NCBI RefSeq assembly: GCF_046105845.1
Contig: NZ_CP151004.1
Length of the DNA stretch: 64,000 nt
Direction: 5' to 3' (one strand)
Source: Escherichia coli
Lineage (GTDB): Bacteria; Pseudomonadota; Gammaproteobacteria; Enterobacterales; Enterobacteriaceae
Shown here: piece after piece, positions 22,043-48,850 of the stretch
Layout of the letters: every line of letters starts with the position of its first letter
How positions within the stretch are numbered: position 1 is the stretch's first letter
The notes under the pieces: generated by a model
The model's input: only the letters and a program-made list of their open reading frames with translations
The model's database searches: none
Told to the model about the DNA's origin: nothing
Translations under genes and position numbers: made by a program

Positions 22043-22092
22043 ACAACTCAAGAATAGCCGCGAAACGTTGTCATTACAACTCAGGCGGCTAT

Positions 22093-26182: not shown

Positions 26183-26193
26183 GGGATTGGTGA

Positions 26194-26946: not shown

Positions 26947-29561
26947 GTATCCTGACCCGGTGGTTGCTTATCCCGCCGGTCAACGCGCGGCTTATCGGGC
27001 GTTATCGCGATTATCGTCGTCACGGCGCGTCGGCTTTCAGCGCGACGCTCGGCTGTTTTTGGTTGATTCTGGCCTGGATTTTTATTCCGCTGGAGCACCC
27101 GCGCTGGCAGCGTATTCGCGCAGAACATAAAAACCTGTATCCGCATATCAACGCCTCCCGTCCGCGTCCGCTGGACCCGGTCCGTTATCTCATTCAAACA
27201 TGCTGGTTACTGATCGGTACATCGCGCAAAGAAACGCCGAAACCGCGCAGGCGGACATTTTCAGGTCTGCAGAATATTCGTGGACGTTACCATCAATGGA
27301 TGAACGAGCTGCCTGAGCGCGTTAGCCATAAAACACAGCATCTCGATGAGAAAAAAGAGCTCGGTCATTTGAGCGCCGGGGCGCGGCGGTTGATCCTCGG
27401 TATCATCGTCACCTTCTCGCTGATTCTGGCGTTAATCTGCGTTACCCAGCCGTTTAACCCGCTGGCGCAGTTTATCTTCCTGATGCTGCTGTGGGGTGTA
27501 GCGCTGATCGTACGGCGGATGCCGGGGCGCTTCTCGGCGCTAATGTTGATTGTGCTGTCGCTGACCGTTTCTTGCCGTTATATCTGGTGGCGCTACACCT
27601 CTACGCTGAACTGGGACGATCCGGTCAGCCTGGTGTGCGGGCTTATTCTGCTGTTCGCCGAAACGTACGCGTGGATTGTGCTGGTGCTCGGCTACTTCCA
27701 GGTAGTATGGCCGCTGAATCGTCAGCCGGTGCCATTGCCGAAAGATATGTCGTTGTGGCCGTCGGTGGATATCTTTGTCCCGACTTACAACGAAGATCTC
27801 AACGTGGTGAAAAATACCATTTACGCCTCGCTGGGTATCGACTGGCCGAAAGACAAGCTGAACATCTGGATCCTTGATGACGGCGGCAGGGAAGAGTTTC
27901 GCCAGTTTGCGCAAAACGTGGGGGTGAAATATATCGCCCGTACCACTCATGAACATGCGAAAGCGGGCAACATCAACAATGCGCTGAAATATGCCAAAGG
28001 CGAGTTCGTGTCGATTTTCGACTGCGACCACGTACCAACGCGATCGTTCCTGCAAATGACCATGGGCTGGTTCCTGAAAGAAAAACAGCTGGCGATGATG
28101 CAGACGCCGCACCACTTCTTCTCACCGGATCCGTTTGAACGCAACCTGGGGCGTTTTCGTAAAACACCGAACGAAGGCACGCTGTTCTATGGTCTGGTGC
28201 AGGATGGCAACGATATGTGGGACGCCACTTTCTTCTGCGGTTCCTGTGCGGTGATTCGCCGTAAGCCGCTGGATGAAATTGGCGGCATTGCTGTCGAAAC
28301 TGTGACTGAAGATGCGCATACTTCTCTGCGCCTGCACCGTCGTGGCTACACCTCTGCATATATGCGTATTCCGCAGGCGGCGGGGCTGGCGACCGAAAGT
28401 CTGTCGGCGCATATCGGTCAGCGTATTCGCTGGGCGCGCGGGATGGTGCAAATCTTCCGTCTCGATAACCCGCTCACCGGTAAAGGGCTGAAGTTTGCTC
28501 AGCGGCTATGTTACGTCAACGCCATGTTCCACTTCTTGTCGGGCATTCCACGGCTGATCTTCCTGACTGCGCCGCTGGCGTTCCTGCTGCTTCATGCCTA
28601 CATCATCTATGCGCCAGCGTTGATGATTGCCCTGTTCGTGCTGCCGCATATGATCCATGCCAGCCTGACCAACTCGAAGATCCAGGGCAAATATCGCCAC
28701 TCTTTCTGGAGTGAAATCTACGAAACGGTGCTGGCGTGGTATATCGCACCACCGACGCTGGTGGCGCTGATTAACCCGCACAAAGGCAAATTTAACGTTA
28801 CCGCCAAAGGTGGACTGGTGGAAGAAGAGTACGTCGACTGGGTGATCTCGCGGCCCTACATCTTCCTTGTTCTGCTCAACCTGGTGGGCGTTGCGGTAGG
28901 CATCTGGCGCTACTTCTATGGCCCGCCAACCGAGATGCTCACCGTGGTCGTCAGTATGGTGTGGGTATTCTACAACCTGATTGTTCTTGGCGGCGCAGTT
29001 GCGGTATCGGTAGAAAGCAAACAGGTACGCCGATCGCACCGCGTGGAGATGACGATGCCCGCGGCAATTGCCCGCGAAGATGGTCACCTCTTCTCGTGTA
29101 CCGTTCAGGATTTCTCCGACGGTGGTTTGGGGATCAAGATCAACGGTCAGGCGCAGATTCTGGAAGGGCAGAAAGTGAATCTGTTGCTTAAACGTGGTCA
29201 GCAGGAATACGTCTTCCCGACCCAGGTGGCGCGCGTGATGGGTAATGAAGTTGGGCTGAAATTAATGCCGCTCACCACCCAGCAACATATCGATTTTGTG
29301 CAGTGTACGTTTGCCCGTGCGGATACATGGGCGCTCTGGCAGGACAGCTATCCGGAAGATAAGCCGCTGGAAAGTCTGCTGGATATTCTGAAGCTCGGCT
29401 TCCGTGGCTACCGCCATCTGGCGGAGTTTGCGCCTTCTTCGGTGAAGGGCATATTCCGTGTGCTGACTTCTCTGGTTTCCTGGGTTGTATCGTTTATTCC
29501 GCGCCGCCCGGAGCGGAGCGAAACGGCACAACCATCGGATCAGGCTTTGGCTCAACAATGA
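26943..29561 (+). CDS. bcsA: Cellulose synthase catalytic subunit, 872 aa
   Basis: ORF-track frame 26895..29561 trimmed to ATG at 26943 (MSILTRWLLIPPVNARLIG…); GT2 motifs and C-terminal PilZ region recognised; start overlaps bcsQ stop. Confidence 0.95.
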   Translation: MSILTRWLLIPPVNARLIGRYRDYRRHGASAFSATLGCFWLILAWIFIPLEHPRWQRIRAEHKNLYPHINASRPRPLDPVRYLIQTCWLLIGTSRKETPKPRRRTFSGLQNIRGRYHQWMNELPERVSHKTQHLDEKKELGHLSAGARRLILGIIVTFSLILALICVTQPFNPLAQFIFLMLLWGVALIVRRMPGRFSALMLIVLSLTVSCRYIWWRYTSTLNWDDPVSLVCGLILLFAETYAWIVLVLGYFQVVWPLNRQPVPLPKDMSLWPSVDIFVPTYNEDLNVVKNTIYASLGIDWPKDKLNIWILDDGGREEFRQFAQNVGVKYIARTTHEHAKAGNINNALKYAKGEFVSIFDCDHVPTRSFLQMTMGWFLKEKQLAMMQTPHHFFSPDPFERNLGRFRKTPNEGTLFYGLVQDGNDMWDATFFCGSCAVIRRKPLDEIGGIAVETVTEDAHTSLRLHRRGYTSAYMRIPQAAGLATESLSAHIGQRIRWARGMVQIFRLDNPLTGKGLKFAQRLCYVNAMFHFLSGIPRLIFLTAPLAFLLLHAYIIYAPALMIALFVLPHMIHASLTNSKIQGKYRHSFWSEIYETVLAWYIAPPTLVALINPHKGKFNVTAKGGLVEEEYVDWVISRPYIFLVLLNLVGVAVGIWRYFYGPPTEMLTVVVSMVWVFYNLIVLGGAVAVSVESKQVRRSHRVEMTMPAAIAREDGHLFSCTVQDFSDGGLGIKINGQAQILEGQKVNLLLKRGQQEYVFPTQVARVMGNEVGLKLMPLTTQQHIDFVQCTFARADTWALWQDSYPEDKPLESLLDILKLGFRGYRHLAEFAPSSVKGIFRVLTSLVSWVVSFIPRRPERSETAQPSDQALAQQ

Positions 29562-29571
29562 TGATAACGCG

Positions 29572-31911
29572 ATGAAAAGAAAACTATTCTGGATTTGTGC
29601 AGTGGCTATGGGGATGAGTGCGTTCCCCTCTTTCATGACGCAGGCGACGCCAGCAACGCAACCACTGATCAATGCTGAGCCAGCTGTAGCCGCCCAGACG
29701 GAACAAAATCCGCAGGTGGGGCAAGTGATGCCGGGCGTGCAGGGCGCTGATGCGCCAGTCGTGGCGCAGAACGGTCCTTCGCGTGATGTGAAGCTGACCT
29801 TTGCGCAAATTGCGCCGCCGCCGGGCAGCATGGTGCTACGTGGCATTAACCCGAACGGCAGCATTGAGTTTGGTATGCGCAGCGATGAAGTGGTGACGAA
29901 GGCGATGCTCAACCTCGAATACACGCCATCGCCGTCTTTGCTACCTGTCCAGTCGCAGTTAAAGGTTTATCTCAATGATGAACTGATGGGCGTGCTGCCA
30001 GTGACCAAAGAACAGTTGGGTAAAAAAACGCTGGCGCAAATGCCCATTAACCCACTGTTTATTACCGACTTCAACCGTGTGCGGCTGGAGTTTGTCGGTC
30101 ATTATCAGGACGTGTGCGAAAACCCGGCCAGCACCACGCTTTGGCTGGATGTTGGGCGGAGCAGTGGACTGGATTTGACCTATCAGACCCTGAATGTGAA
30201 GAATGACCTGTCACACTTCCCGGTACCATTCTTTGACCCGCGTGATAACCGTACTAACACCTTGCCGATGGTCTTTGCGGGTGCGCCGGATGTCGGGCTG
30301 CAACAAGCATCTGCCATTGTCGCCTCGTGGTTTGGTTCGCGTTCTGGCTGGCGTGGGCAGAACTTCCCGGTGCTCTATAACCAATTGCCGGATCGCAATG
30401 CCATCGTTTTTGCCACCAATGACAAACTCCCGGATTTCCTGCGCGATCATCCGGCGGTAAAAGCCCCGGTGATTGAGATGATCAACCATCCGCAGAATCC
30501 TTACGTCAAACTGCTGGTGGTGTTTGGTCGTGACGACAAAGACCTGTTGCAGGCAGCGAAAGGTATCGCTCAGGGTAACATTCTGTTCCGTGGTGAAAGC
30601 GTGGTAGTGAATGAAGTGAAACCGCTGCTACCGCGTAAGCCCTACGATGCGCCGAACTGGGTGCGTACCGATCGTCCGGTCACCTTTGGTGAACTGAAAA
30701 CCTATGAAGAACAGTTGCAATCCAGCGGTCTTGAGCCAGCAGCGATTAATGTTTCGCTAAACCTGCCGCCAGATCTCTACCTGATGCGCAGTACCGGCAT
30801 TGATATGGATATTAATTACCGCTACACCATGCCGCCGGTGAAAGACAGTTCGCGGATGGATATCAGCCTGAATAACCAGTTCCTGCAATCATTCAATCTG
30901 AGCAGCAAACAGGAGGCGAACCGCCTGCTGCTGCGTATTCCGGTATTACAAGGTTTGCTGGATGGCAAAACGGATGTCTCTATTCCGGCGCTGAAACTGG
31001 GCGCGACCAACCAGCTGCGCTTCGACTTTGAGTATATGAACCCGATGCCGGGCGGTTCGGTGGATAACTGTATTACCTTCCAGCCGGTGCAGAATCATGT
31101 GGTGATTGGTGATGATTCCACCATCGACTTCTCGAAGTATTACCACTTCATCCCGATGCCGGATCTACGCGCCTTTGCTAACGCGGGCTTCCCGTTCAGC
31201 CGGATGGCGGATCTGTCGCAAACCATCACCGTGATGCCGAAAACGCCTAACGAAGCACAGATGGAAACCTTGCTGAATACTGTTGGTTTTATCGGCGCAC
31301 AGACGGGCTTCCCGGCGATTAATCTGACGGTGACCGATGATGGCAGCACCATTCAGGGCAAAGATGCCGACATCATGATCATCGGTGGTATCCCGGACAA
31401 ATTAAAAGACGACAAGCAGATCGACCTGCTGGTGCAGGCGACCGAAAGCTGGGTGAAAACGCCGATGCGCCAGACCCCGTTCCCCGGCATTGTTCCGGAC
31501 GAGAGCGATCGCGCGGCAGAAACCCAGTCAACGCTGACCTCTTCCGGTGCGATGGCGGCGGTGATTGGCTTCCAGTCGCCGTATAACGACCAGCGCAGCG
31601 TGATTGCGCTGCTGGCAGATAGCCCACGCGGTTATGAAATGCTTAACGATGCGGTGAACGATAGCGGCAAACGCGCCACCATGTTCGGTTCGGTCGCGGT
31701 GATCCGCGAGTCCGGTATCAATAGCCTACGCGTTGGCGACGTCTATTACGTTGGCCATCTGCCGTGGTTCGAACGCTTATGGTATGCGCTGGCAAACCAT
31801 CCGATTCTGCTGGCGGTGCTGGCGGCAATCAGCGTCGTGCTGCTGGCCTGGGTACTGTGGCGTCTGCTGCGTATTATCAGCCGTCGTCGTCTTAACCCGG
31901 ATAACGAGTAA
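29572..31911 (+). CDS. bcsB: Cellulose synthase periplasmic subunit, 779 aa
   Basis: ORF-track frame 29485..31911 trimmed to ATG at 29572 (MKRKLFWICAVAMGMSAFPSF…). Confidence 0.95.
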   Translation: MKRKLFWICAVAMGMSAFPSFMTQATPATQPLINAEPAVAAQTEQNPQVGQVMPGVQGADAPVVAQNGPSRDVKLTFAQIAPPPGSMVLRGINPNGSIEFGMRSDEVVTKAMLNLEYTPSPSLLPVQSQLKVYLNDELMGVLPVTKEQLGKKTLAQMPINPLFITDFNRVRLEFVGHYQDVCENPASTTLWLDVGRSSGLDLTYQTLNVKNDLSHFPVPFFDPRDNRTNTLPMVFAGAPDVGLQQASAIVASWFGSRSGWRGQNFPVLYNQLPDRNAIVFATNDKLPDFLRDHPAVKAPVIEMINHPQNPYVKLLVVFGRDDKDLLQAAKGIAQGNILFRGESVVVNEVKPLLPRKPYDAPNWVRTDRPVTFGELKTYEEQLQSSGLEPAAINVSLNLPPDLYLMRSTGIDMDINYRYTMPPVKDSSRMDISLNNQFLQSFNLSSKQEANRLLLRIPVLQGLLDGKTDVSIPALKLGATNQLRFDFEYMNPMPGGSVDNCITFQPVQNHVVIGDDSTIDFSKYYHFIPMPDLRAFANAGFPFSRMADLSQTITVMPKTPNEAQMETLLNTVGFIGAQTGFPAINLTVTDDGSTIQGKDADIMIIGGIPDKLKDDKQIDLLVQATESWVKTPMRQTPFPGIVPDESDRAAETQSTLTSSGAMAAVIGFQSPYNDQRSVIALLADSPRGYEMLNDAVNDSGKRATMFGSVAVIRESGINSLRVGDVYYVGHLPWFERLWYALANHPILLAVLAAISVVLLAWVLWRLLRIISRRRLNPDNE

Positions 31912-31917
31912 TTGAAG

Positions 31918-33024
31918 ATGAATGTGTTGCGTAGTGGACTCGTGACGATGCTGCTGCTGGCTGCCTTTAGTGTTCAGGCAGCCTGCAACTGGCCTGCCTG
32001 GGAGCAGTTCAAAAAGGATTACATCAGTCAGGAAGGGCGCGTCATTGACCCAAGTGACGCGCGTAAAATCACCACTTCCGAAGGGCAAAGTTACGGCATG
32101 TTCTTTGCCCTGGCGGCTAACGACCGTGCAGCTTTCGATAATATTCTCGACTGGACGCAGAACAATCTCGCTCAGGGTTCTTTAAAAGAACGTTTGCCCG
32201 CATGGCTGTGGGGCAAGAAAGAGAACAGTAAGTGGGAAGTGCTGGACAGCAATTCGGCCTCCGATGGTGATGTCTGGATGGCCTGGTCGTTGCTGGAGGC
32301 GGGGCGTTTGTGGAAAGAGCAGCGTTATACCGACATCGGCAGCGCGTTGTTAAAACGTATTGCGCGGGAGGAAGTGGTGACGGTGCCTGGGCTGGGTTCC
32401 ATGTTGTTGCCGGGCAAAGTGGGATTTGCAGAGGATAACAGCTGGCGTTTTAACCCCAGCTACCTGCCGCCGACGCTGGCGCAGTATTTCACCCGCTTTG
32501 GCGCGCCGTGGACTACGCTGCGCGAAACCAATCAACGTTTATTGCTGGAAACCGCCCCGAAAGGCTTTTCGCCAGACTGGGTGCGCTATGAGAAAGACAA
32601 AGGCTGGCAGCTAAAAGCCGAAAAAACATTGATCAGCAGCTACGACGCGATCCGCGTTTACATGTGGGTAGGCATGATGCCTGACAGCGATCCGCAAAAA
32701 GCGCGGATGCTCAACCGGTTTAAACCGATGGCGACATTCACCGAGAAAAACGGCTATCCGCCAGAAAAAGTGGATGTGGCTACGGGGAAAGCGCAGGGTA
32801 AAGGACCGGTCGGTTTTTCTGCCGCCATGCTGCCCTTTTTACAAAACCGCGATGCGCAGGCCGTTCAGCGCCAGCGCGTGGCCGATAACTTTCCCGGCAG
32901 CGATGCCTATTACAACTATGTGCTGACCCTGTTTGGACAAGGCTGGGATCAACACCGTTTCCGCTTCTCGACAAAAGGTGAGTTATTACCTGACTGGGGC
33001 CAGGAATGCGCAAATTCACACTAA
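31918..33024 (+). CDS. bcsZ: Endo-1,4-beta-glucanase (GH8), 368 aa
   Basis: ORF-track start at 31912 is TTG; ATG at 31918 gives [21 protein letters not shown]… signal peptide and the expected 368 aa. Confidence 0.93.
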
Positions 33025-36000
33025 ACATATTCACGCTTTCTCTCGGTCTGGCCGTCATGCCGATGGTCGAGGCAGCACCAACCGCTCAGCAACAGTTGCT
33101 GGAGCAAGTTCGGTTAGGCGAAGCGACCCATCGTGAAGACCTGGTGCAACAGTCGTTGTATCGTCTGGAACTTATTGATCCGAATAACCCGGACGTCGTT
33201 GCCGCCCGTTTCCGTTCTCTGTTACGTCAGGGCGATATTGATGGCGCGCAAAAACAGCTCGATCGGCTGTCGCAGTTAGCGCCGAGTTCAAATGCGTATA
33301 AATCGTCGCGGACCACAATGTTGCTTTCCACGCCGGATGGTCGTCAGGCACTGCAACAGGCAAGATTGCAGGCGACGACTGGTCATGCAGAAGAAGCTGT
33401 GGCGAGTTACAACAAACTGTTCAACGGTGCGCCGCCGGAAGGTGACATTGCCGTCGAGTACTGGAGTACGGTGGCGAAAATTCCGGCTCGCCGTGGCGAA
33501 GCGATTAATCAGCTAAAACGCATTAATGCGGATACGCCGGGCAATACGGGCCTGCAAAACAATCTGGCGCTATTGCTGTTTAGTAGCGATCGCCGTGACG
33601 AAGGCTTTGCCGTCCTGGAGCAGATGGCGAAATCGAACGCCGGGCGCGAAGGAGCCTCTAAAATCTGGTACGGGCAGATTAAAGATATGCCCGTCAGCGA
33701 TGCCAGTGTGTCGGCGCTGAAAAAATATCTCTCGATCTTTAGTGATGGCGATAGCGTAGCTGCGGCGCAATCGCAACTGGCAGAACAGCAAAAACAGCTG
33801 GCCGACCCTGCTTTCCGCGCTCGTGCGCAAGGTTTAGCGGCGGTGGACTCTGGTATGGCGGGTAAAGCCATTCCCGAACTACAACAGGCGGTGCGGGCGA
33901 ACCCGAAAGACAGTGAGGCACTGGGGGCGCTGGGCCAGGCGTATTCTCAGAAAGGCGATCGCGCCAATGCGGTGGCGAATCTGGAAAAAGCCCTCGCCCT
34001 GGATCCGCACAGCAGCAACAACGACAAATGGAACAGTCTCCTGAAAGTAAACCGCTACTGGCTGGCGATCCAGCAGGGCGATGCTGCGCTGAAAGCCAAT
34101 AATCCTGACCGGGCAGAACGCCTGTTCCAGCAGGCGCGCAATGTCGATAACACCGACAGCTATGCAGTGCTGGGGCTGGGTGATGTGGCGATGGCGCGCA
34201 AAGATTACCCTGCAGCCGGACGTTATTATCAGCAGACGCTACGGATGGACAGTAGCAACACTAACGCCGTGCGCGGTCTGGCGAATCTTTATCGCCAGCA
34301 ATCGCCGGAAAAAGCCGAAGCGTTTATCGCCTCGCTCTCTGCCAGCCAGCGGCGCAGCATTGATGATATCGAACGCAGCCTGCAAAATGACCGTTTGTCA
34401 CAGCAGGCAGAGGCACTGGAAAAACAGGGCAAATGGGCGCAGGCAGCAGCACTTCAGCGCCAGCGACTGGCGCTGGACCCCGGCAGTGTATGGATTACTT
34501 ACCGACTTTCACAGGATCTCTGGCAGGCCGGACAACGCAGCCAGGCCGATACGTTAATGCGTAATCTGGCGCAGCAGAAGCCGAACGACCCGGAGCAGGT
34601 TTACGCTTACGGGCTGTATCTCTCTGGCCATGACCAGGACAGAGCGGCGCTGGCGCATATCAACAGCCTGCCGCGCGCGCAGTGGAACAGCAATATTCAG
34701 GAGCTGGTTAATCGACTGCAAAGCGATCAGGTACTGGAAACCGCTAATCGCCTGCGAGAAAGCGGCAAAGAAGCTGAAGCGGAAGCGATGCTGCGCCAGC
34801 AACCACCTTCCACGCGCATAGACCTCACGCTGGCTGACTGGGCGCAACAACGACGTGATTACACCGCCGCCCGCACTGCATATCAGAATGTCCTGACGCG
34901 GGAGCCAGCTAACGCCGATGCCATTCTTGGTCTGACGGAAGTGGATATTGCTGCCGGTGACAAAGCGGCGGCACGTAGCCAGCTGGCGAAGCTGCCTGCC
35001 ACCAATAACGCCTCGCTGAACACTCAGCGGCGCGTGGCGCTGGCACAGGCGCAGCTTGGCGATACCGCAGCGGCGCAGCAGACGTTTAATAAGTTGATCC
35101 CGCAGGCAAAATCTCAGCCACCGTCGATGGAAAGCGCGATGGTGCTGCGCGACGGTGCGAAGTTTGAAGCGCAGGCGGGCGATCCAACGCAGGCGCTGGA
35201 AACCTACAAAGACGCCATGGTTGCATCCGGTGTGACCACGATGCGTCCACAGGATAACGACACCTTTACCCGACTGACCCGCAATGACGAGAAAGATGAC
35301 TGGCTGAAACGCGGCGTGCGCAGCGATGCGGCGGACCTCTATCGTCAGCAGGATCTTAACGTCACCCTCGAGCACGATTACTGGGGTTCGAGCGGCACCG
35401 GTGGTTACTCCGATCTGAAAGCGCACACCACCATGTTGCAGGTGGATGCGCCGTACTCTGACGGGCGGATGTTCTTTCGCAGTGATTTCGTCAATATGAA
35501 CGTCGGCAGTTTCTCCACTAATGCCGATGGCAAATGGGATGACAACTGGGGCACCTGTACATTACAGGACTGTAGCGGCAACCGCAGCCAGTCGGATTCC
35601 GGTGCCAGCGTGGCGGTCGGTTGGCGAAATGACGTCTGGAGCTGGGATATCGGCACCACGCCGATGGGCTTCAACGTGGTGGATGTGGTCGGCGGCATCA
35701 GTTACAGCGATGATATCGGGCCGCTGGGTTACACCGTTAACGCCCATCGTCGGCCCATCTCCAGTTCTTTGCTGGCCTTTGGTGGGCAAAAAGACTCTCC
35801 GAGCAATACCGGGAAAAAATGGGGCGGCGTGCGTGCCGACGGCGTGGGGCTAAGCCTGAGCTACGATAAAGGTGAAGCAAACGGCGTCTGGGCATCGCTT
35901 AGCGGTGACCAGTTAACCGGTAAAAATGTCGAAGATAACTGGCGCGTGCGCTGGATGACGGGCTATTACTATAAGATCATCAACCAGAATAATCGCCGTG

Positions 36001-36479
36001 TGACCATTGGTCTTAACAATATGATCTGGCATTACGACAAAGACCTGAGTGGCTACTCACTCGGTCAGGGCGGTTACTACAGCCCGCAGGAATACCTGTC
36101 GTTTGCCATACCGGTGATGTGGCGGGAGCGCACGGAAAACTGGTCGTGGGAGCTGGGGGCGTCTGGCTCGTGGTCGCATTCACGCACCAAAACCATGCCG
36201 CGTTATCCGCTGATGAATCTGATCCCGACCGACTGGCAGGAAGAAGCTGCGCGGCAATCGAACGATGGCGGCAGCAGTCAGGGCTTTGGCTACACGGCGC
36301 GGGCATTACTTGAACGACGTGTTACTTCCAACTGGTTTGTCGGCACGGCAATTGATATCCAGCAGGCGAAAGATTACGCACCCAGCCATTTCCTGCTCTA
36401 CGTACGTTATTCCGCCGCCGGATGGCAGGGTGACATGGATTTACCGCCGCAGCCGCTGATACCTTACGCCGACTGGTAA
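33006..36479 (+). CDS. bcsC: Cellulose synthase outer-membrane subunit (TPR repeats plus beta-barrel), 1157 aa
   Basis: 1157-aa ORF with signal peptide, recognised as BcsC; start overlaps bcsZ 3' end by 19 nt. Confidence 0.95.
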
Positions 36480-36560
36480 GTTTTCAGATAGCGCCTCTCT
36501 TAATGCCGCTGCGATCGGGTATACTCGGGCGGCAATCTGGGATTTCCGGGGGGAGACAAT

Positions 36561-38549
36561 TTGCGCGTAAGTCGCTCGTTAACAATCAAGCAGATGGCAA
36601 TGGTGGCAGCCGTTGTCCTGGTGTTCGTTTTTATTTTTTGCACCGTTTTGCTGTTCCATCTGGTCCAGCAGAATCGCTATAACACGGCTACGCAACTGGA
36701 AAGCATTGCTCGCTCTGTCCGCGAACCCTTATCTTCAGCTATTTTGAAAGGCGATATTCCCGAAGCGGAAGCTATTCTTGCCAGCATTAAACCGGCAGGC
36801 GTGGTCAGCCGTGCCGATGTAGTGCTGCCTAACCAGTTCCAGGCGCTGCGTAAAAGTTTTATTCCAGAGCGTCCGGTGCCGGTAATGGTTACTCGCATGT
36901 TTGAGCTACCGGTTCAAATCTCGCTGGGTGTCTACTCGCTCGAACGTCCGGCAAATCCGCAGCCAATTGCCTATCTGGTGCTACAGGCGGATTCCTTCCG
37001 CATGTATAAGTTCGTGATGAGCACCCTCTCAACGTTAGTGACCATTTACTTACTTTTGTCGTTAATATTGACGGTGGCGATTAGCTGGTGCATTAACCGC
37101 CTGATTTTGCATCCGTTACGCAATATTGCTCGCGAACTTAACGCCATCCCTGCCCAGGAGCTTGTTGGTCACCAACTGGCATTACCACGTCTGCATCAGG
37201 ACGATGAAATCGGTATGCTGGTGCGCAGTTACAACCTCAACCAGCAATTGCTGCAGCGCCATTATGAAGAACAGAACGAAAACGCGATGCGCTTCCCGGT
37301 GTCGGATTTGCCGAACAAAGCCTTGCTGATGGAGATGCTGGAGCAGGTTGTCGCGCGTAAACAAACCACCGCGCTGATGATCATCACCTGTGAAACCCTG
37401 CGTGATACTGCGGGCGTGCTGAAAGAGGCGCAACGAGAAATTCTGCTGCTGACGCTGGTGGAAAAACTCAAATCGGTACTGTCGCCACGTATGATCCTCG
37501 CGCAGATTAGTGGTTATGACTTTGCTGTCATTGCCAACGGGGTACAGGAACCGTGGCACGCAATCACTTTGGGTCAGCAAGTGCTCACTATCATGAGCGA
37601 GCGCCTGCCGATTGAACGTATTCAACTCCGTCCGCACTGTAGCATTGGCGTGGAGATGTTCTACGGCGATCTCACCGCCGAACAGCTTTACAGTCGCGCT
37701 ATTTCTGCGGCATTTACCGCTCGCCATAAAGGCAAGAATCAGATTCAGTTCTTTGATCCGCAGCAGATGGAAGCCGCCCAACAGCGGTTGACGGAAGAGA
37801 GCGATATCCTTAATGCACTGGAAAATCATCAGTTTGCGATTTGGTTACAGCCACAGGTCGAGATGACCAGCGGTAAACTGGTCAGTGCAGAAGTGTTACT
37901 GCGTATCCAGCAACCGGATGGCAGTTGGGATCTGCCGGATGGCTTAATCGATCGCATTGAGTGCTGTGGGCTGATGGTTACCGTCGGTCACTGGGTGCTG
38001 GAAGAGTCCTGTCGATTGCTTGCTGCCTGGCAAGAGCGCGGCATTATGCTGCCCTTGTCGGTAAACCTCTCAGCGCTGCAACTGATGCATCCAAATATGG
38101 TGGCGGATATGCTGGAACTGTTAACCCGCTATCGCATTCAGCCGGGAACACTGATTCTGGAAGTGACAGAAAGCCGACGTATTGACGACCCTCATGCTGC
38201 GGTGGCAATCCTCCGTCCGTTGCGTAATGCCGGAGTTCGGGTGGCGCTGGATGATTTCGGCATGGGCTATGCGGGGCTGCGTCAGCTGCAGCATATGAAA
38301 TCGTTGCCAATCGACGTACTGAAAATCGACAAAATGTTTGTTGAAGGTTTGCCGGAAGATAGCAGCATGATTGCTGCAATTATCATGCTGGCGCAGAGCC
38401 TGAACTTACAAATGATTGCCGAAGGCGTGGAGACTGAAGCACAACGCGACTGGCTGGCAAAAGCGGGCGTTGGTATTGCCCAGGGCTTCCTTTTTGCTCG
38501 CCCACTCCCTATTGAAATCTTCGAAGAGAGTTACCTGGAAGAAAAGTAG
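36561..38549 (+). CDS. pdeK: c-di-GMP phosphodiesterase (HAMP-GGDEF-EAL), ~650-662 aa
   Basis: ORF with N-terminal TM helix and C-terminal EAL domain, recognised as PdeK (YhjK); longest frame starts at TTG 36561, alternative ATGs 33-39 nt downstream. Confidence 0.9.
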
Positions 38550-38587
38550 CTACCCCAAACTGATTACAAAACTTTAAAAAGTGCTGG

Positions 38588-38608
38588 TTTGTGCGAGCCA
38601 GCTCAAAC
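38588..38608 (+). promoter_or_regulatory. Candidate CRP site upstream of dctA
   Basis: TTTGTGCGAGCCAGCTCAAA resembles the TGTGA-N6-TCACA CRP consensus, ~130 bp upstream of the dctA ATG. Confidence 0.35.
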
Positions 38609-38695
38609 TTTTTAACCTTTTTGTTTCAATTATGATCCAGGTACATTTCTGTGATGTTGTCTGGGTGTTATTTTAAGGCCGCAGGTACCCCATAA

Positions 38696-40018
<1,323 letters not shown>

Positions 40019-43758: not shown

Positions 43759-43827
43759 GCTGCCTCATTTTCCGCCTGGCTGGACTATCTTTAGGACTGG
43801 CACAGGAAGAATATGAGGAAGCGAACG

Positions 43828-45888
43828 ATGAGCAAGGCAGGCAAAATAACCGCTGCGATTTCAGGGGCTTTCTTGTTGTTGATTGTCGTGGCGATCATTT
43901 TGATTGCAACTTTTGATTGGAATCGACTCAAACCGACCATCAACCAGAAAGTCTCTGCGGAGTTGAATCGTCCGTTCGCTATCCGTGGCGATCTGGGCGT
44001 CGTGTGGGAGCGACAAAAACAAGAAACTGGCTGGCGCAGCTGGGTGCCGTGGCCCCATATACACGCGGAAGACATCATTCTCGGCAACCCACCAGATATT
44101 CCCGAAGTCACAATGGTGCATTTGCCACGCGTAGAGGCAACACTGGCCCCGCTGGCGCTGCTGACCAAAACGGTCTGGTTGCCGTGGATCAAGCTCGAAA
44201 AGCCCGACGCACGCCTGATTCGCCTCTCAGAAAAGAACAATAACTGGACCTTTAATCTCGCCAACGATGATAACAAAGACGCGACTGCAAAGCCGTCGGC
44301 ATGGTCGTTTCGGCTGGATAATATTCTGTTCGATCAAGGGCGGATCGCCATTGATGACAAAGTAAGCAAAGCGGATCTGGAAATTTTTGTCGATCCGTTA
44401 GGCAAGGCGCTGCCGTTCAGCGAAGTTACTGGATCGAAAGGTAAAGCGGATAAAGAAAAGGTGGGTGATTACGTTTTTGGCCTGAAGGCGCAGGGACGTT
44501 ATAACGGTGAACCGCTCACGGGTACGGGAAAAATAGGCGGTATGCTGGCGCTGCGTGGCGAAGGGACGCCGTTTCCGGTACAGGCTGATTTCCGCTCTGG
44601 TAACACCCGTGTTGCTTTTGATGGCGTTGTGAATGACCCAATGAAGATGGGTGGTGTCGATTTACGGCTTAAATTTTCTGGCGATTCGCTGGGTGATCTC
44701 TATGAACTGACGGGCGTTCTGCTGCCCGATACCCCGCCGTTTGAAACGGATGGTCGGCTGGTAGCGAAAATCGACACTGAAAAATCGTCGGTCTTTGATT
44801 ATCGCGGTTTTAATGGGCGCATTGGCGATAGCGATATCCACGGTTCTCTGGTCTACACCACCGGCAAGCCACGACCAAAACTAGAAGGTGATGTCGAGTC
44901 GCGGCAATTGCGGCTGGCGGACCTGGGACCGTTGATTGGCGTTGATTCCGGGAAAGGAGCTGAAAAGTCGAAACGGTCTGAACAGAAGAAGGGTGAAAAA
45001 AGCATTCAGCCTGCGGGCAAAGTGCTGCCTTATGACCGCTTCGAAACCGATAAATGGGACGTCATGGATGCCGATGTTCACTTCAAAGGGCGGCGCATTG
45101 AGCATGGCAGTAGCCTGCCGATTAGCGATCTTTCTACTCATATCATCCTCAAAAATGCTGACCTGCGCCTGCAACCGCTGAAATTTGGCATGGCGGGCGG
45201 CAGCATTGCGGCGAATATTCATCTGGAAGGTGATAAAAAACCGATGCAGGGGCGGGCAGATATTCAGGCCCGTCGGCTGAAACTGAAAGAACTGATGCCC
45301 GATGTGGAACTGATGCAGAAGACGCTGGGGGAAATGAACGGTGACGCGGAACTACGCGGTAGCGGTAACTCGGTGGCGGCGCTTCTAGGCAACAGTAACG
45401 GCAACCTGAAACTGTTGATGAATGACGGGCTGGTGAGCCGCAACCTGATGGAGATTGTCGGGCTGAATGTCGGTAACTACATTGTCGGTGCGATATTTGG
45501 TGACGATGAGGTGCGGGTGAACTGTGCGGCGGCGAATCTGGATATTGCCAACGGCGTGGCGCGTCCGCAGATTTTTGCTTTTGATACTGAGAATGCGTTG
45601 ATCAATGTTACCGGCACGGCAAGTTTTGCTTCGGAGCAACTGGATTTGACTATCGATCCAGAAAGTAAAGGGATTCGGATTATCACGCTGCGTTCGCCGC
45701 TGTATGTGCGTGGGACGTTTAAAAATCCGCAGGCTGGGGTAAAAGCCGGACCGTTGATTGCTCGCGGAGCCGTCGCGGCGGCACTGGCAACGCTGGTAAC
45801 ACCAGCGGCGGCGTTACTGGCGCTGATCTCACCTTCCGAAGGGGAGGCTAATCAGTGTCGGACGATTTTGTCGCAGATGAAGAAGTGA
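43828..45888 (+). CDS. yhjG: AsmA-family inner-membrane-anchored protein, 686 aa
   Basis: ORF-track frame 43813..45888 trimmed to ATG at 43828 (MSKAGKITAAISGAFLLLIVVAIIL…). Confidence 0.9.
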   Translation: MSKAGKITAAISGAFLLLIVVAIILIATFDWNRLKPTINQKVSAELNRPFAIRGDLGVVWERQKQETGWRSWVPWPHIHAEDIILGNPPDIPEVTMVHLPRVEATLAPLALLTKTVWLPWIKLEKPDARLIRLSEKNNNWTFNLANDDNKDATAKPSAWSFRLDNILFDQGRIAIDDKVSKADLEIFVDPLGKALPFSEVTGSKGKADKEKVGDYVFGLKAQGRYNGEPLTGTGKIGGMLALRGEGTPFPVQADFRSGNTRVAFDGVVNDPMKMGGVDLRLKFSGDSLGDLYELTGVLLPDTPPFETDGRLVAKIDTEKSSVFDYRGFNGRIGDSDIHGSLVYTTGKPRPKLEGDVESRQLRLADLGPLIGVDSGKGAEKSKRSEQKKGEKSIQPAGKVLPYDRFETDKWDVMDADVHFKGRRIEHGSSLPISDLSTHIILKNADLRLQPLKFGMAGGSIAANIHLEGDKKPMQGRADIQARRLKLKELMPDVELMQKTLGEMNGDAELRGSGNSVAALLGNSNGNLKLLMNDGLVSRNLMEIVGLNVGNYIVGAIFGDDEVRVNCAAANLDIANGVARPQIFAFDTENALINVTGTASFASEQLDLTIDPESKGIRIITLRSPLYVRGTFKNPQAGVKAGPLIARGAVAAALATLVTPAAALLALISPSEGEANQCRTILSQMKK

Positions 45889-45931
45889 TGAGGTTGGATT
45901 GTGTTTGTTGGTGAGTTCGGGAGCAGCGTGT

Positions 45932-45969
45932 TCCCCTCACCCTAACCCTCTCCCCAAAGGGGCGAGGGG
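45932..45969 (+). repeat. GC-rich palindromic intergenic repeat, copy A
   Basis: CCCCTCACCCTAACCCTCTCCCCAAAGGGGCGAGGGGA. Confidence 0.7.
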
Positions 45970-46067
45970 ACTGTTTTGTGCGTGTTGAAACAACGAGTAC
46001 CGCTTTTCCGTTCACTTTCTGGGGGGAGGGCTGTTATGTTCGCGATATAACATCTCGCTCCGCTTTT

Positions 46068-46106
46068 CTCCCTCTCCCTTTCAGGGAGAGGGCCGGGGTG
46101 AGGGTG
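46068..46106 (-). repeat. GC-rich palindromic intergenic repeat, copy B (inverted relative to A)
   Basis: TCCCTCTCCCTTTCAGGGAGAGGGCCGGGGTGAGGGTGG is the reverse complement of the copy A motif. Confidence 0.7.
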
Positions 46107-46122
46107 GCAGCCCGCACGATAC

Positions 46123-47445
46123 TTACAACGACTGATGTCGTGTCTCATGGGTCAGCAGCAGGGCGATTAAGGTCAAGCCAGCCATCGCCGCCAGATATAA
46201 CCCCACCGCACCTAACCCGTAGTTAGTCTGCAACCAGGCTGCGATATACGGCGCAACGGAAGCCCCGAGAATCGACGCTACGTTGTAAGAGAACGATGCT
46301 CCGGTGTAACGCACTTCTGTCGGGAACAGCTCTGGTAACAGCGCGCCCATCGGCCCGAAGGTCAGTCCCATCAGACTTAACCCCAGCAGCAGGAAGGCAA
46401 AAACCAGAATCGGGTTGCCAGAACCGAGCAGAGGGTTAAAGGCGAACAGCGCGAACAGGATGATCAGCGTGGTGATGATTACCATGCTTTTACGGCGACC
46501 AAAGGCATCAGCCAGTAATCCGGCGACTGGCACCATCACGCCAAAACCAATCACTGCCATCATCAGCATCCACAATACTTCGTTACGCGGCAGGCCAAGC
46601 CCAACTGGCGCGGCGGCGGTACTAAAGGTCATAGAGTAGACCGTCATGATGTAAAACAGCGTATAGGTTGCCAGCATGATGAAGGTACCGAGCACCGTGA
46701 CGCGTACGTGTTTGGTCAGCAGCGTACCCAGCGGGATCTTCACCTGCTTTTTCGCTTTAGCGACTTTCTCAAACACCGGCGACTCATGCAGCGACACGCG
46801 AACATACAGGCCGATAATGACCAGCACCGCCGAGAAGATAAACGGCACGCGCCAACCCCAGCTCATAAACTGCTCGTCGGTCAGTAGCCAGGAAAGCAGT
46901 AAGAAAGTGCCGTTGGCAAAGAAGAAGCCAATCGGTGCGCCCAGCTGCGGGAAGGAGCCGTACAATGCACGTTTGCGCGGTGGGGCGTTTTCAGTCGCCA
47001 GCAGCGCCGCGCCGCCCCATTCACCGCCTAAGCCCAGACCCTGACCAAATCGAGCCAGTGCCAGCAGCAGCGGGGCGAAAATACCAATCGTGGCATAGCC
47101 CGGCAGCAGACCAATCACCACGGTCGAAATCCCCATCGTTAGCAACGAGGCGACCAGCGTCGCTTTACGCCCAACACGATCGCCAAAATGACCAAAGACG
47201 GCAGAGCCAATAGGGCGCGCGACGAAGGCGATGGCGAAAGTGGCAAGCGACTGTAGCGTTGCTGCCGTAGGATCGCCCTGCGGGAAGAAGATATGCGGAA
47301 ACACAATAACGGCCGCAGTGGCGTAAATATAAAAGTCGAAGAACTCAATGGCCGTGCCAATGAGAGAGGCGACAAGGACTTTATTACGCGAGTTGATCGG
47401 CGTGTATTCTTGCTCGTGGTCGAGTGTTGTGGCTGTTGCTTGCAT
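46123..47445 (-). CDS. yhjE: MFS transporter (metabolite:H+ symporter family), 440 aa
   Basis: 440-aa multi-TM ORF recognised as YhjE. Confidence 0.92.
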   Translation of the reverse strand: MQATATTLDHEQEYTPINSRNKVLVASLIGTAIEFFDFYIYATAAVIVFPHIFFPQGDPTAATLQSLATFAIAFVARPIGSAVFGHFGDRVGRKATLVASLLTMGISTVVIGLLPGYATIGIFAPLLLALARFGQGLGLGGEWGGAALLATENAPPRKRALYGSFPQLGAPIGFFFANGTFLLLSWLLTDEQFMSWGWRVPFIFSAVLVIIGLYVRVSLHESPVFEKVAKAKKQVKIPLGTLLTKHVRVTVLGTFIMLATYTLFYIMTVYSMTFSTAAAPVGLGLPRNEVLWMLMMAVIGFGVMVPVAGLLADAFGRRKSMVIITTLIILFALFAFNPLLGSGNPILVFAFLLLGLSLMGLTFGPMGALLPELFPTEVRYTGASFSYNVASILGASVAPYIAAWLQTNYGLGAVGLYLAAMAGLTLIALLLTHETRHQSL

Positions 47446-47760
47446 AATCTTTTCTTATTTTTTGGCTAACGAATAGCCATATTACGCACAGCAAAAGTGA
47501 TATTTCAATGTGTAACAAATCGCGGAAATAGTCAAAAATCAGGCAAAAAGGGGATAATGTTTAGGCCAGTGATTTTTCTTCTATGAAATGCTTCACATAA
47601 TTTTATAAATGGTGGATAAAACTGGTTTCAGGTTAAATAAAAGTTACCAACTGGATTTATATGCTGGGGTTATGAGTTGGAATGAAATTGTTTGCTCCTG
47701 AAGAGATGTAGTTTCAGGTGGTTATGTGCATGTCATTGCCTGGTCTCTGGCTGGCTTGTA

Positions 47761-47799
47761 CCCCCTCACCCTAATCCTCTCCCCGAAGGGGCGAGGGGA
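47761..47799 (+). repeat. GC-rich palindromic intergenic repeat, copy C
   Basis: CCCCCTCACCCTAATCCTCTCCCCGAAGGGGCGAGGGGA, ~90% identical to copy A. Confidence 0.7.
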
Positions 47800-47836
47800 T
47801 CGACCGTGCGTTTATCAGGCATTATAAACCAATGAA

Positions 47837-48850
47837 TTACCGCTGCGTTTTCCCCGGCATTCGCGGGTCGTCTTTATATTCGGCGGTGGCAATCCACGCC
47901 GCGCAAAACAGCGTCAAACGGGCGAAGAAGTAGAAAAACGCCATCAGCCCCAGCACGGAACCAAATGCTGCGCCAGAGGGGGATTTCATCAGCGATGGCA
48001 GGGTGTAGGTCATCACGATTTTAATCACTTCAAAACCAATCGCAGCCAGAAATGTTCCGCGAATCAGGGCTTTTTTGCGCGGACGGTGGCGCGGTAACCG
48101 CCAGAAGATCCAGAAGAAAAGCAGATAGTTGGCGAAGATGGAAATCGCCAGGCCAATCAACCGCCACGTCGGTTTCAGCCACTCAATGCTGTTCAGGTGC
48201 AGGGCGCTAATAATCATTTGCTGCGCCGAACCGGCAACCGAGGTGATCGAAAGCGTCACAATCAGTGCAATCAACAAACCAATCAGCGAAATAAAATCAC
48301 GCAGATATTTTACCCAGAACTTCTCCTGATCTTGCGGCGAGCGTTCCCAGACATCGCGTGACTGGGCGCGAATCGCTTCACGCAGGTTACCCATCCAGTT
48401 GATGCCGGAATAAAGCGCCACCGCCAGGCCGACAAGCCCTACGGTAGTACGCTGCTGAACGGCGGTGTTAATGGTGTTTTTCAACGTGGCGGCTAGCGTC
48501 GGATCGCTGATGTTTTGCAGAATTTTGTCGAAGATATCCTGTAGCAACATCGGATGGGAGGCCAGCACAAAGCCCCCTGCGGCAAACGACACCATCAAAA
48601 TCGGGATCATCGATAAAAATGAGAAATAGGTGATAGCCGCACCAAACTGGTTACCCAGCCGATCGTTAAAGCGCTCTGTTGCGCGAATCAGGTGCGCAAT
48701 AACCGGTTGGCGTTGGACTTTTTCGGCAGTGGTGGTGACGGTTTCCAGCGCCTGGCTAACTTTGCCGCCTTTCTCGCTATTATCCAACTGCTTAATCGGC
48801 TCGTGCTCCAGATCCTGGGTGGGACGTTTGATCTCGTTTTCCTGCGTCAT
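47837..48850 (-). CDS. yhjD: Inner-membrane protein of the YihY/virulence-factor BrkB family, 337 aa
   Basis: 337-aa ORF recognised as YhjD. Confidence 0.9.
   Translation of the reverse strand: MTQENEIKRPTQDLEHEPIKQLDNSEKGGKVSQALETVTTTAEKVQRQPVIAHLIRATERFNDRLGNQFGAAITYFSFLSMIPILMVSFAAGGFVLASHPMLLQDIFDKILQNISDPTLAATLKNTINTAVQQRTTVGLVGLAVALYSGINWMGNLREAIRAQSRDVWERSPQDQEKFWVKYLRDFISLIGLLIALIVTLSITSVAGSAQQMIISALHLNSIEWLKPTWRLIGLAISIFANYLLFFWIFWRLPRHRPRKKALIRGTFLAAIGFEVIKIVMTYTLPSLMKSPSGAAFGSVLGLMAFFYFFARLTLFCAAWIATAEYKDDPRMPGKTQR

Follow-up and report, generated by a model that had tools for sequence, protein, structure and literature searches.

Do three GC-rich palindromic repeats around yhjE form a device built around this gene, or is each an ordinary occupant of the intergenic region in which it lies? 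The repeats are found in a 64-kb stretch of Escherichia coli DNA (the window). The first-pass annotation, which left them unassigned to any repeat family, took their bracketing of yhjE to suggest transcript insulation or a recombination hotspot. All three are present, within 1–2 nt of where it had placed them. The gene layout rests on open reading frames and on the RefSeq annotation of homologous loci, principally that of the nearly identical GF4-3 locus, and on this basis all copies are intergenic. yhjG (43,813–45,888, + strand; AsmA family protein) and yhjE (46,123–47,445, − strand; MFS transporter) converge on a 234-nt region (gap 1; 45,889–46,122), where an inverted pair of repeats faces the 3′ end of yhjG. 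The third copy lies on the other side of yhjE, in the region (gap 2) past the 3′ end of yhjD (47,837–48,850, − strand; inner membrane protein), an arrangement that had been correctly described from the start.

Copy 1 (45,934–45,968; G-rich strand −) starts 45 nt past the yhjG stop codon, copy 2 (46,070–46,104, + strand), inverted with respect to copy 1, ends 18 nt short of the yhjE stop codon (46,123), and copy 3 (47,763–47,797, − strand) is 39 nt beyond the yhjD stop codon; the distance past a stop codon is thus 18–45 nt throughout. With their flanks, the three elements extend over approximately 45,918–45,990, 46,052–46,120 and 47,745–47,818. The ~255 nt of gap 2 closest to yhjE are conserved in alignments, and copy 3 lies ~255 nt upstream of a promoter-like site predicted for yhjE (47,508–47,479).

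Assignment of the repeats to BoxC

Judged by their sequences, the three repeats are ordinary members of a small intergenic family of E. coli and other enterobacteria that has already been described under the names BoxC (Bergler et al. 1992; Bachellier et al. 1999), PIT (Hoyne et al. 2000; Hoyne & Maher 2002), TMECO (Holder et al. 2015, PMC4666352) and HPG1/HPG2, the last as G-quadruplex motifs (2016, PMC5100583). Among known E. coli repeat families, BoxC is given a length of ~50–56 bp and 22–32 copies. In the core, one C-rich block precedes two G-rich ones, and a family-specific flank of ~20 nt adjoins it at either end; the core is captured by the published TMECO pattern, 5′-CCCTCNCCC N3-6 GGGNGAGGG N3 GGGNGAGGG-3′, in which one mismatch is tolerated (PMC4666352). 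Copies 1 and 2 match this pattern exactly and copy 3 with one substitution, in the middle G block (GGGAGAGGA), where GF4-3 and AR_0372 have an unmutated GGG; a regex scan of the window at up to three substitutions returned no other match. The 36-nt core of copy 1 is base for base that of K-12 TMECO nos. 7, 11 and 15, and copy 2 is one base apart from K-12 no. 10. Copies 1 and 3 are of type A (TTA second loop) and copy 2 is of type B (CCG second loop). K-12 has five closely spaced inverted pairs, each made up of one type A and one type B copy (PMC4666352), and the inverted pair of the window has the same A + B arrangement.

The resemblance extends into the flanks, for which the K-12 copies at hrpB, fepB, gcvP, alx and lldD were compared. 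Type A flanks (..GCAC....GTC before the core, AACA.GC.. after it) are common to the window and K-12 copies, and type B flanks (..CGCTTTTCT before the core, ..CAG(G/C)CCGCAC after it) to the window, K-12 and Enterobacter copies. Copy 2 has TTTTCT before the core and CAGCCCGCAC after it, both also present in K-12 and Enterobacter copies. The left flank of copy 2 (GTGCGGGCTGCCA) was considered as a sign of orthology with the Enterobacter copies; this was rejected because the same flank is found at unrelated K-12 type B copies, and it is therefore regarded as part of the element. Copy 1 contains the exact HPG1 21-mer (GGGAGAGGGTTAGGGTGAGGG) and copy 2 the exact HPG2 21-mer (GGGAGAGGGCCGGGGTGAGGG) as published (PMC5100583). 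The HPG four-G-run motif, present in both of these, is absent from copy 3, where the G runs (GGGG, GG, GGG, GGGGG) include only three of at least 3 G and the fit to a four-tract quadruplex is lost.

An nhmmer search of the 64 kb with a profile of the published K-12 copies (n = 23) recovered copies 1, 2 and 3 with E values of 3e-11, 9e-9 and 3e-9, and yielded no further BoxC copy at a cut-off as loose as E<10. The type A copies form a direct repeat (45,933–45,970 and 47,762–47,799; 38 nt, 95% identity), and the inverted copy (46,070–46,104) shows 80% complementarity to either of them over 35 nt. Allowing up to three mismatches, the window has two occurrences of the 22-mer CCCTCACCCTAACCCTCTCCCC, where 100 dinucleotide-preserving shuffles give an expectation of 0.00. 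Gap 1 also contains a decayed type B half-copy (CCGCTTTTC...CTTTCTGGGGGGAGGGC; 46,000–46,031, + strand), which repeats the left part of copy 2 in direct orientation and whose local alignment to 46,059–46,093 has a score of 25, equalled in 1 of 2000 shuffles. No Rfam match was obtained over 45,500–48,200 (best 14–19 bits, against gathering scores of 37–90; E≥1); the best sub-threshold matches were to unrelated eukaryotic or archaeal families.

REP/BIME elements resemble BoxC in being short, GC-rich intergenic palindromes that lie just after genes and vary among strains, but the two are unrelated in sequence: the REP consensus palindrome, GCC(G/T)GATG...CATC(C/A)GGC, was not found in the three copies, BoxC has a third G block, and REP is present in hundreds of copies where BoxC has ~20–30. 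The distinction drawn in the first-pass annotation between the repeats around yhjE and the REP/BIME elements at 13,496–13,584 holds, the latter being a genuine pair of REP units with no sequence relationship to the BoxC copies. From BoxC/PIT/TMECO, by comparison, the window copies show no difference in kind, sharing core, loops, A + B pairing, flanks, intergenic chromosomal location, copy numbers in the tens and association with variable gaps, and differing only in the one extra mismatch of copy 3.

With a 60-nt probe, E. coli genomes have a median of 18 BoxC places (range 1–32), of which 99.9% (86,582/86,635) are chromosomal; BoxC is rare in phage (5/50,697) and plasmid (510/72,556) records. 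For MG1655, 23 copies have been published (PMC4666352). The yhjE locus lacks BoxC in K-12 and hence is not among these 23. It had been anticipated that the motif might be a common, already-named repeat with hundreds of copies, leaving nothing specific to the locus, and this is largely the case: the family is a named one, although its copies number in the tens. The locus stands out by its polymorphism.

Replacement and assortment of the two gaps

Allele frequencies were counted over 5426 complete E. coli genomes. Gap 1 acts as a single replaceable cassette, which in the window is unlike that of K-12 over its entire length between the two stop codons, and its paired BoxC allele, counted by the single-copy spacer, is present in 1600 genomes (29.5%). 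In gap 2, alignments and the site table define a variable block (47,699–47,841) adjoining the yhjD stop codon, which contains copy 3 in the window and REP units in K-12; the block with copy 3 was found in 600/5426 genomes (11%). K-12 and most strains, O157 and CFT073 included, have REP/BIME in place of BoxC at both gaps, making REP and BoxC positional alternatives at exactly these two sites, while gap 1 of SF-173 has a 40-nt hairpin only. Gap 1 has at least four alleles and gap 2 at least two, and the alternative alleles also vary in length (178, 181 and 40 nt at gap 1; 392, 410 and 411 nt at gap 2). In AR_0372, gap 1 is missing exactly 46,032–46,093 (62 bp), with the half-copy, which provides the left end-point, joined to the last G block of copy 2 and the copy 2 hairpin removed. 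The cassettes end at the stop codons, with no target-site duplication to be seen there.

These alternative cassettes and the 62-bp deletion, together with the report that rearrangement is much more frequent at TMECO loci than at control intergenic sites and that the family is tied to intergenic variability (Holder 2015; PMC4666352), lend partial support to the proposed recombination hotspot in a weaker sense, that of a hypervariable intergenic site. The repeat family is a known one and the locus is an ordinary hypervariable intergenic cassette.

The two gap polymorphisms assort independently, and it is by chance that yhjE has BoxC on either side. All four cassette combinations were found among strains (both, 2; gap 1 only, 16; gap 2 only, 5; neither, 36, in an even-step sample of 59), and both BoxC alleles occur together in ~3% of genomes, against 3.2% expected (29.5% × 11%). 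The window therefore represents the uncommon double-BoxC combination, and the idea that yhjE is bracketed as a unit has to be abandoned. The yhjE locus itself was matched in 5425/5426 genomes regardless of the repeat alleles around it. A single haplotype block across yhjE is ruled out by the occurrence of all four combinations, by the double allele being at its independence frequency and by flanking SNPs, which are mosaic and unlinked to cassette type. Import of BoxC cassettes on a divergent recombination tract is likewise unsupported, as yhjE and the adjoining gene ends differ no more between the BoxC and REP classes than inside either class. In the few strains examined, the yhjD protein allele tracks the gap 2 cassette.

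We consider it likely (probability about 0.7) that the BoxC copies are ordinary family members in hypervariable, replaceable intergenic cassettes, passively inherited and largely neutral, with no device around yhjE. Each gap is a replaceable cassette that contains BoxC, REP/BIME or a bare hairpin depending on the E. coli strain, and the structured DNA would persist in the 3′ parts of intergenic regions, where little harm comes of it. Its presence may have two side effects: the neighboring genes would gain a stable hairpin in their 3′ untranslated RNA, and slippage or deletion between repeated G blocks would be promoted locally, adding to the high turnover of the gaps. Two features count against neutrality. 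Among enterobacteria, all orthologues of the yhjE/yhjG gap that were examined have a GC-rich hairpin element of one kind or another, possibly because a structured element is selected for there, and a position close behind stop codons, seen here and in four of the five K-12 pairs inspected, is the distribution expected of a 3′-end element such as REP.

Folding, instability and transcription signals

The strong RNA hairpins envisaged in the first-pass annotation are well supported by folding. Single elements fold as RNA at −20 to −35 kcal/mol (ViennaRNA), and the whole yhjG/yhjE gap is far more structured than its shuffles (z = −5.1 on the + strand, −3.95 on the − strand). Copy 2 forms a perfect 10-bp hairpin and single strands of the elements, DNA or RNA, fold to a GC hairpin of 9–10 bp. 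The copies were also checked for the triads of a purine-motif intrastrand triplex (C:G pairs plus G.G, A.A and T.A third-strand contacts), giving 9/10 Watson–Crick and 10/10 third-strand positions in copy 1, 9/9 and 9/9 in copy 2, and 8/10 and 9/10 in copy 3. The isolated G-rich strand has a very stable three-stranded fold in vitro, K-12 type A and B oligonucleotides melting at 70–82 °C (PMC4666352). Copy 1 belongs to the same sequence class as the melted oligonucleotides (type A, one mismatch).

Such folds raise the possibility that BoxC is an active instability element, a triplex, hairpin or G-quadruplex formed transiently by the G-rich strand in replication or transcription stalling polymerases and leading to deletions and replacements, so that the repeats would cause, and not merely mark, the hypervariability of the gaps. 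We regard this as possible but, on balance, unlikely. The excess of rearrangement at TMECO loci and the high melting temperatures are consistent with it, as are the number of alleles at both gaps, the presence in copies 1 and 2 of all triads for a three-stranded fold (one Watson–Crick position of copy 1 apart) and the position of the 62-bp deletion, whose end-points lie inside two G blocks. PIT elements are reported to block DNA polymerase in vitro and to have had no effect in vivo, and in vivo DMS footprinting detected no triplex, the double-stranded form being an ordinary duplex (PMC4666352). The alternative REP alleles are variable too, and the variability is therefore not specific to BoxC, while replacement of whole cassettes from stop codon to stop codon is unlike a product of slippage. 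Causation could also run in the reverse direction, with repeats accumulating where gaps are already variable.

The elements share with Rho-independent terminators a GC-rich hairpin shortly past a stop codon, but the window copies have no T-run after it, and in the family consensus TTTTCT lies ahead of the hairpin. A scan of 45,700–48,000 found no intrinsic terminator (hairpin plus T-run) at any copy, and the three terminator-like sites in this region are no excess over the 2.7 in shuffles. The intrinsic-terminator explanation was therefore rejected. Promoter and terminator activity were both absent for the elements according to Hoyne & Maher 2002, as summarised in PMC4666352, which, with the misplaced T-run, leaves the transcript insulation proposed earlier unsupported.

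A functional 3′-end module could act differently, in the manner of REP, guarding the upstream mRNA from 3′-to-5′ decay or damping convergent read-through, with BoxC, REP and hairpins interchangeable and kept by selection. REP has documented effects on mRNA 3′ ends, both members of a convergent gene pair tend to be more highly expressed where REP elements separate them, and REP325 has been reported as a partial terminator and mRNA stabiliser. The short distance of all three copies from a stop codon and the strong structure of the gap on both strands fit this explanation, as does the replacement of BoxC by REP, or the reverse, at both E. coli gaps. Across 33 enterobacterial loci, the site directly behind yhjE is filled by a full BoxC 7 times, by a BoxC-like bare hairpin 9 times and by REP 9 times. 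Set against these are the blank terminator scan at the copies, the hairpins with no T-run and the reported absence of terminator and promoter activity cited above, and the persistence in natural strains of both the 40-nt allele and the allele in which the copy 2 hairpin is deleted. We judge a selected 3′-end module to be improbable, if less so than the explanations that follow.

A broader version holds that the yhjE/yhjG gap always needs a GC-rich hairpin, with BoxC, REP and bare hairpins swapped or re-inserted across at least six enterobacterial genera; this we think rather doubtful. BoxC or a BoxC-like hairpin occupies the gap in several other enterobacterial genera, in differing orientations and type orders, and in some genera, Kosakonia (L048) for example, the orthologous gap has a BoxC-like stem followed by a T-run. 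E. albertii, the one Escherichia outgroup compared, has a GCCGGATG-type hairpin and apparently lacks yhjG beside yhjE; BoxC at this gap was, tentatively, probably derived within E. coli.

Lastly, that the inverted copies are the ends of a transposon-like or MITE-like element, the pair or the yhjE-flanking copies moving together, is largely refuted at this locus and very improbable: the 35-nt arms are inverted and 80% complementary, a 27-nt spacer common to three K-12 pairs implies that some pairs have been repeated as composites, and filling of the same gap in several genera in differing orientation and type order suggests repeated arrival, but the 95-nt interior of the pair (45,972–46,066) is single-copy, once per genome in 1600/1600 carrier genomes, which rules out a composite or MITE, yhjE is a core gene whatever repeats flank it, its two sides assort independently, the cassette boundaries show no target-site duplication, and plasmids and phages have almost no copies of the family. 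REP has an associated transposase family, RAYT; for BoxC we know of no associated transposase or other enzyme, nor of any demonstrated function.

Implications for the BoxC family

For annotation, a repeat that had been left unassigned is settled as BoxC. RefSeq records do not annotate BoxC and Rfam does not include it, and the family will consequently keep being rediscovered. The locus itself is a clear natural case of intergenic cassette replacement, with sharp boundaries at stop codons and independent assortment of the cassettes on the two sides of one gene.

Should the REP-like explanation prove true, BoxC would have a role in protection of mRNA 3′ ends or in buffering of convergent transcription that was missed by the promoter and terminator assays of 2002, and some targeting of BoxC to existing hairpin sites would be implied. 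If the recurrent occupation of the yhjE/yhjG gap in different genera reflects function and not tolerance, the natural alleles described here would provide ready-made material for an mRNA 3′-end test of a question that dates from 1992.

BoxC elements around yhjE

The three repeats near yhjE lie at 45934–45968 (−; copy 1), 46070–46104 (+; copy 2) and 47763–47797 (−; copy 3). A 38-nt direct repeat (45933–45970 and 47762–47799; 95% identity) and its inverted counterpart at 46070–46104, which shows 80% complementarity to both copy 1 and copy 3 across 35 nt, bear out the inverted pair plus third copy described in the first-pass annotation, and the 22-mer CCCTCACCCTAACCCTCTCCCC (≤3 mismatches) occurs twice in the window versus 0.00 expected from shuffles. 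From ORFs and RefSeq annotation of homologous E. coli loci, yhjG occupies 43813–45888 (+), yhjE 46123–47445 (−) and yhjD 47837–48850 (−), so that copies 1 and 2 are in the convergent yhjG/yhjE intergenic region (gap 1, 45889–46122) and copy 3 is directly behind yhjD in the yhjE/yhjD region (gap 2). Mechanical ORFs of 68 (45942–46148, −) and 82 aa (45978–46226, +) cross the repeat-filled gap 1; the 99% identical GF4-3 locus has no annotated gene for either, and both almost certainly arise artefactually from the GC-rich repeats. The REP pair at 13496–13584 (GTAGGCCTGATAAGACGCGCCAGCGTCGCTTCAGGC and TGTCGGATGCGGCGCGACCGCCTTATTCGACCTA) is genuine and, as previously noted, unrelated to the repeats flanking yhjE.

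The repeats, initially left without a family name, match the TMECO motif, defined as 5′-CCCTCNCCC N3-6 GGGNGAGGG N3 GGGNGAGGG-3′ (Holder et al. 2015, PMC4666352) and previously named BoxC (Bergler 1992) and PIT (Hoyne et al. 2000) (PMC4666352); the same G-rich sequences have also been published under a fourth name, as the HPG1 and HPG2 G-quadruplex-hairpin switch (Kaplan et al. 2016). Scanning the window with the TMECO pattern gave exactly three sites (copies 1 and 2, no mismatches; copy 3, one mismatch), and a profile of the 23 K-12 cores found only these copies in the whole 64 kb. Compared with the 23 MG1655 copies in Table 1 of PMC4666352, copy 1 is identical to TMECO nos. 7, 11 and 15 and copy 2 is one base off no. 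10. Subtypes are distinguished by the second loop (type A, TTA; type B, CCG), and in K-12 each of the five inverted pairs lying close together consists of an A and a B (PMC4666352), as does the pair here (copy 1, A; copy 2, B); copy 3 is type A. Alignment of all copies with 35 nt of flank, including the K-12 loci hrpB/mrcB, fepB/entC, gcvP/ygfF, alx/sstT and lldD/trmL, revealed distinct conserved flanks of ~15–20 nt for each type, which the window copies have in common with K-12 loci and with copies from Enterobacter, Kluyvera, Buttiauxella and others. The full element is therefore ~60–75 nt, consistent with the published BoxC length of 50–56 bp. No corresponding Rfam family was found, and RefSeq records have no feature annotated beneath the copies. 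All three repeats are, with very little doubt, ordinary BoxC elements.

In K-12, three pairs face each other with G-ends inward (fepB/entC, L088 2580–2677; gcvP/ygfF, L089 2490–2588; alx/sstT, L090 2600–2699; L-numbers denote fetched comparison loci with internal coordinates) across a near-identical 26–27-nt spacer (AACAGGCCGGCACTGGCGCGAATATTT and variants), so that in this arrangement the A+B pair recurs as a composite palindrome of ~100 nt. In the window the pair is arranged the opposite way round, with a unique 101-nt spacer. Each genome that carries this spacer has it only once, which rules out the gap 1 pair as a repeated composite or MITE.

A 60-nt probe over copy 1 identified a median of 18 BoxC places per complete E. 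coli genome (range 1–32), 86,582 of 86,635 places being chromosomal; matches were very rare in phage records (5/50,697) and uncommon in plasmid records (510/72,556, several chromosome-sized). These counts agree with the 23 copies published for MG1655, unconnected to mobile elements (PMC4666352). The motif is thus already named, under four names, but the family numbers tens of copies in E. coli, not hundreds. Two Campylobacter phage records (MG065686.1 and MG065691.1; 174 kb each) have three probe matches apiece (95.5% over 44 nt), odd for an enterobacterial chromosomal repeat; contamination, convergence on a G-rich motif and a real occurrence are all possible.

Cassette alleles at the two gaps

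BoxC is absent from both gaps in K-12 MG1655. REP/BIME sequences are found there in K-12 and most E. coli (L001 8110–8290 and 6377–6786, versus 45889–46122 and 47699–47841 in the window). In gap 1 nothing is shared between the two stop codons, K-12 having a small GCCGGATG-type hairpin plus REP units, and the gap offers a clear natural example of an intergenic region replaced as an entire cassette. In gap 2 ~255 nt adjoining yhjE are conserved and ~140 nt adjoining the yhjD stop are replaced (REP units in K-12). The gap 2 difference reaches two bases into the last yhjD codon (47840–47841), and in the strains examined the YhjD accession tracks the cassette: WP_000191259.1 with BoxC (L004, L094, L095) and WP_000191257.1 with REP (L003, L005, L006, L092, L093).

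Across 5426 complete genomes gap 1 has at least four alleles: the BoxC pair (231–234 nt; window, GF4-3 and others; 1600 genomes, 29.5%), a 62-bp deletion derivative (172 nt; AR_0372, L004 2701–2872; about 3% of the spread sample), the REP form (178–181 nt; K-12, O157:H7, CFT073 and most remaining genomes) and a hairpin alone (40 nt; SF-173; 2/59 chromosome rows of the spread sample). In gap 2, 600 genomes (11%) carry the BoxC block. AR_0372 lacks exactly 46032–46093 of the BoxC-pair allele, the end-points lying in the G block of a decayed type B half-copy (46000–46031; an equally good alignment in only 1/2000 shuffles) and in the middle G block of copy 2, so that the copy 2 hairpin is gone and a chimeric half-element is left. 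In SF-173 (L003 2701–4063) and similar database matches (H96, H188, H189), gap 1 is a single GCCGGATG-type hairpin. yhjE of SF-173 differs from all other E. coli examined at 76–100 of 1323 positions (6–7.5%), its flanking genes differing far less; by sequence divergence, this suggests that the segment was imported.

Bracketing of yhjE by the repeats had been taken to suggest transcript insulation or a recombination hotspot, but yhjE is not bracketed as one unit, since all four combinations of gap 1 and gap 2 cassettes occur: BoxC/BoxC (window, GF4-3, AR_0372), BoxC/REP (O111:H8 1074-2, JNU), REP/BoxC (ECCNB12-2, PS_131_S11, SMS-3-5) and REP/REP (K-12, O157:H7, CFT073 and, as grouped here, SF-173 with its 40-nt hairpin in gap 1). 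A query across both gaps, taking genomes at regular intervals through the full ranking, returned 59 chromosome rows, with BoxC in both gaps in two, gap 1 only in 16, gap 2 only in five and neither in 36. The two marginals (30.5% and 11.9%) match the frequencies counted directly, and the double class (~3.4%) is at the product of the marginals (0.295 × 0.11 = 3.2%). Over 177 informative sites in 11 strains the region is a recombination mosaic, with flanking SNPs unlinked to cassette type. The yhjE locus matches in 5425/5426 genomes whatever the cassettes, and a transposon-like unit here is effectively excluded.

Over 20 kb (20000–40000, bcs cellulose region), identity to the window does not exceed 99.0% in any complete RefSeq E. 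coli genome, and near yhjG (45689–46322) the window diverges at 3–4% of sites from every strain examined; it therefore belongs to an E. coli or Shigella lineage without a close relative among the 5426 complete genomes searched.

The yhjE 3′ gap in other genera

Scanning one genome per species for YhjE relatives yielded 80 loci, of which 33 from Enterobacteriaceae were classified, crudely and with species not independent, by the sequence just 3′ of the yhjE stop. Seven carry a full BoxC (Enterobacter asburiae, E. cloacae, two Pseudocitrobacter, Buttiauxella, strain RIT691 and Cedecea neteri; ~3821–3941 in L025, L027, L028, L029, L033, L035 and L062). A bare CCCTCTCC-type hairpin or degenerate BoxC is found in nine, including Leclercia, Kosakonia, Pluralibacter and several Enterobacter (the bare hairpins share the CCCTCTCC/GGAGAGGG stem and lie at ~3825–3895 in L017, L030, L034, L048, L024, L021, L012 and L037), REP in nine (including the E. 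coli representative genome, Citrobacter and Lelliottia) and something else in eight. BoxC matches are far denser in this gap than in the remainder of the ~6-kb loci. Type B is nearest yhjE in the window, Enterobacter, Pseudocitrobacter and Cedecea, and type A in Buttiauxella and RIT691; such variation in orientation and type order between genera argues for repeated arrival or turnover, not one ancient insertion. The recurrent occupation is open to reading as a hot spot, as selection for a hairpin or as repeated BoxC decay. In Buttiauxella sp. A111 an inverted BoxC pair is also found upstream of yhjE (L033 2186–2264), flanking the gene on both sides.

A GCCGGATG-type hairpin is common to E. albertii and the B2 strain SF-173, which hints, tentatively and from one outgroup, that the BoxC alleles are derived within E. 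coli. In E. albertii NBRC 107761 (L008 3821–4080) a different gene, also convergent, ends beyond this hairpin. Within the 260 nt 3′ of yhjE there is no sign of the conserved 3′ end of yhjG, which may be absent or moved.

Structure and interpretation

The suspected strong RNA hairpins were recovered on folding: single elements gave −20 to −35 kcal/mol (modest z, −0.9 to −3.0), and the whole 234-nt gap 1 is markedly structured (+ strand, −108.9 kcal/mol, z −5.1; − strand, −87.6 kcal/mol, z −3.95). DNA hairpins of the copies reach −8 to −11 kcal/mol. Blocks of all three are mutually compatible with the published purine-motif triplex (Watson-Crick and third-strand contacts 9/10 and 10/10 in copy 1, 9/9 and 9/9 in copy 2, 8/10 and 9/10 in copy 3); with one G run lost, copy 3 no longer has four-tract quadruplex potential. 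No hairpin-plus-T-run terminator pattern was matched at any copy, and in the type B consensus TTTTCT precedes the hairpin, not follows it.

Our preferred reading, at a probability of roughly 0.7, is that these are ordinary BoxC elements acting as replaceable cassettes at 3′-proximal intergenic positions, their two-sided arrangement being a coincidence of two independent polymorphisms. Effects at the locus would likely be incidental: BoxC would put a stable hairpin into the 3′ untranslated RNA of neighbouring genes and may promote local deletion between repeated G blocks. The active, structure-driven instability role proposed by Holder et al. (PMC4666352) is a less likely alternative here. According to that source, as far as its account and summary of earlier work extend, the isolated G-rich strand forms a very stable triplex (Tm 70–82 °C), ordinary duplex forms with the complement present, the triplex footprint is absent in vivo, polymerase blockage is in vitro only and no promoter or terminator activity is reported. 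A REP-like 3′-end function, argued by analogy with recent REP325 work, from the position of the copies and from the constant presence of some hairpin element in the yhjE/yhjG gap across genera, is another alternative of lower probability.

Already known are the repeat family and its tendency to mark variable intergenic regions; new, and local, are the alleles catalogued at yhjG/yhjE/yhjD with their frequencies, the finding that the two gaps vary independently, the deletion allele with its decayed half-copy and the repeated presence of such elements in the orthologous gap of other genera. Unsurprising to a specialist, these findings can help annotation and offer a natural test bed.
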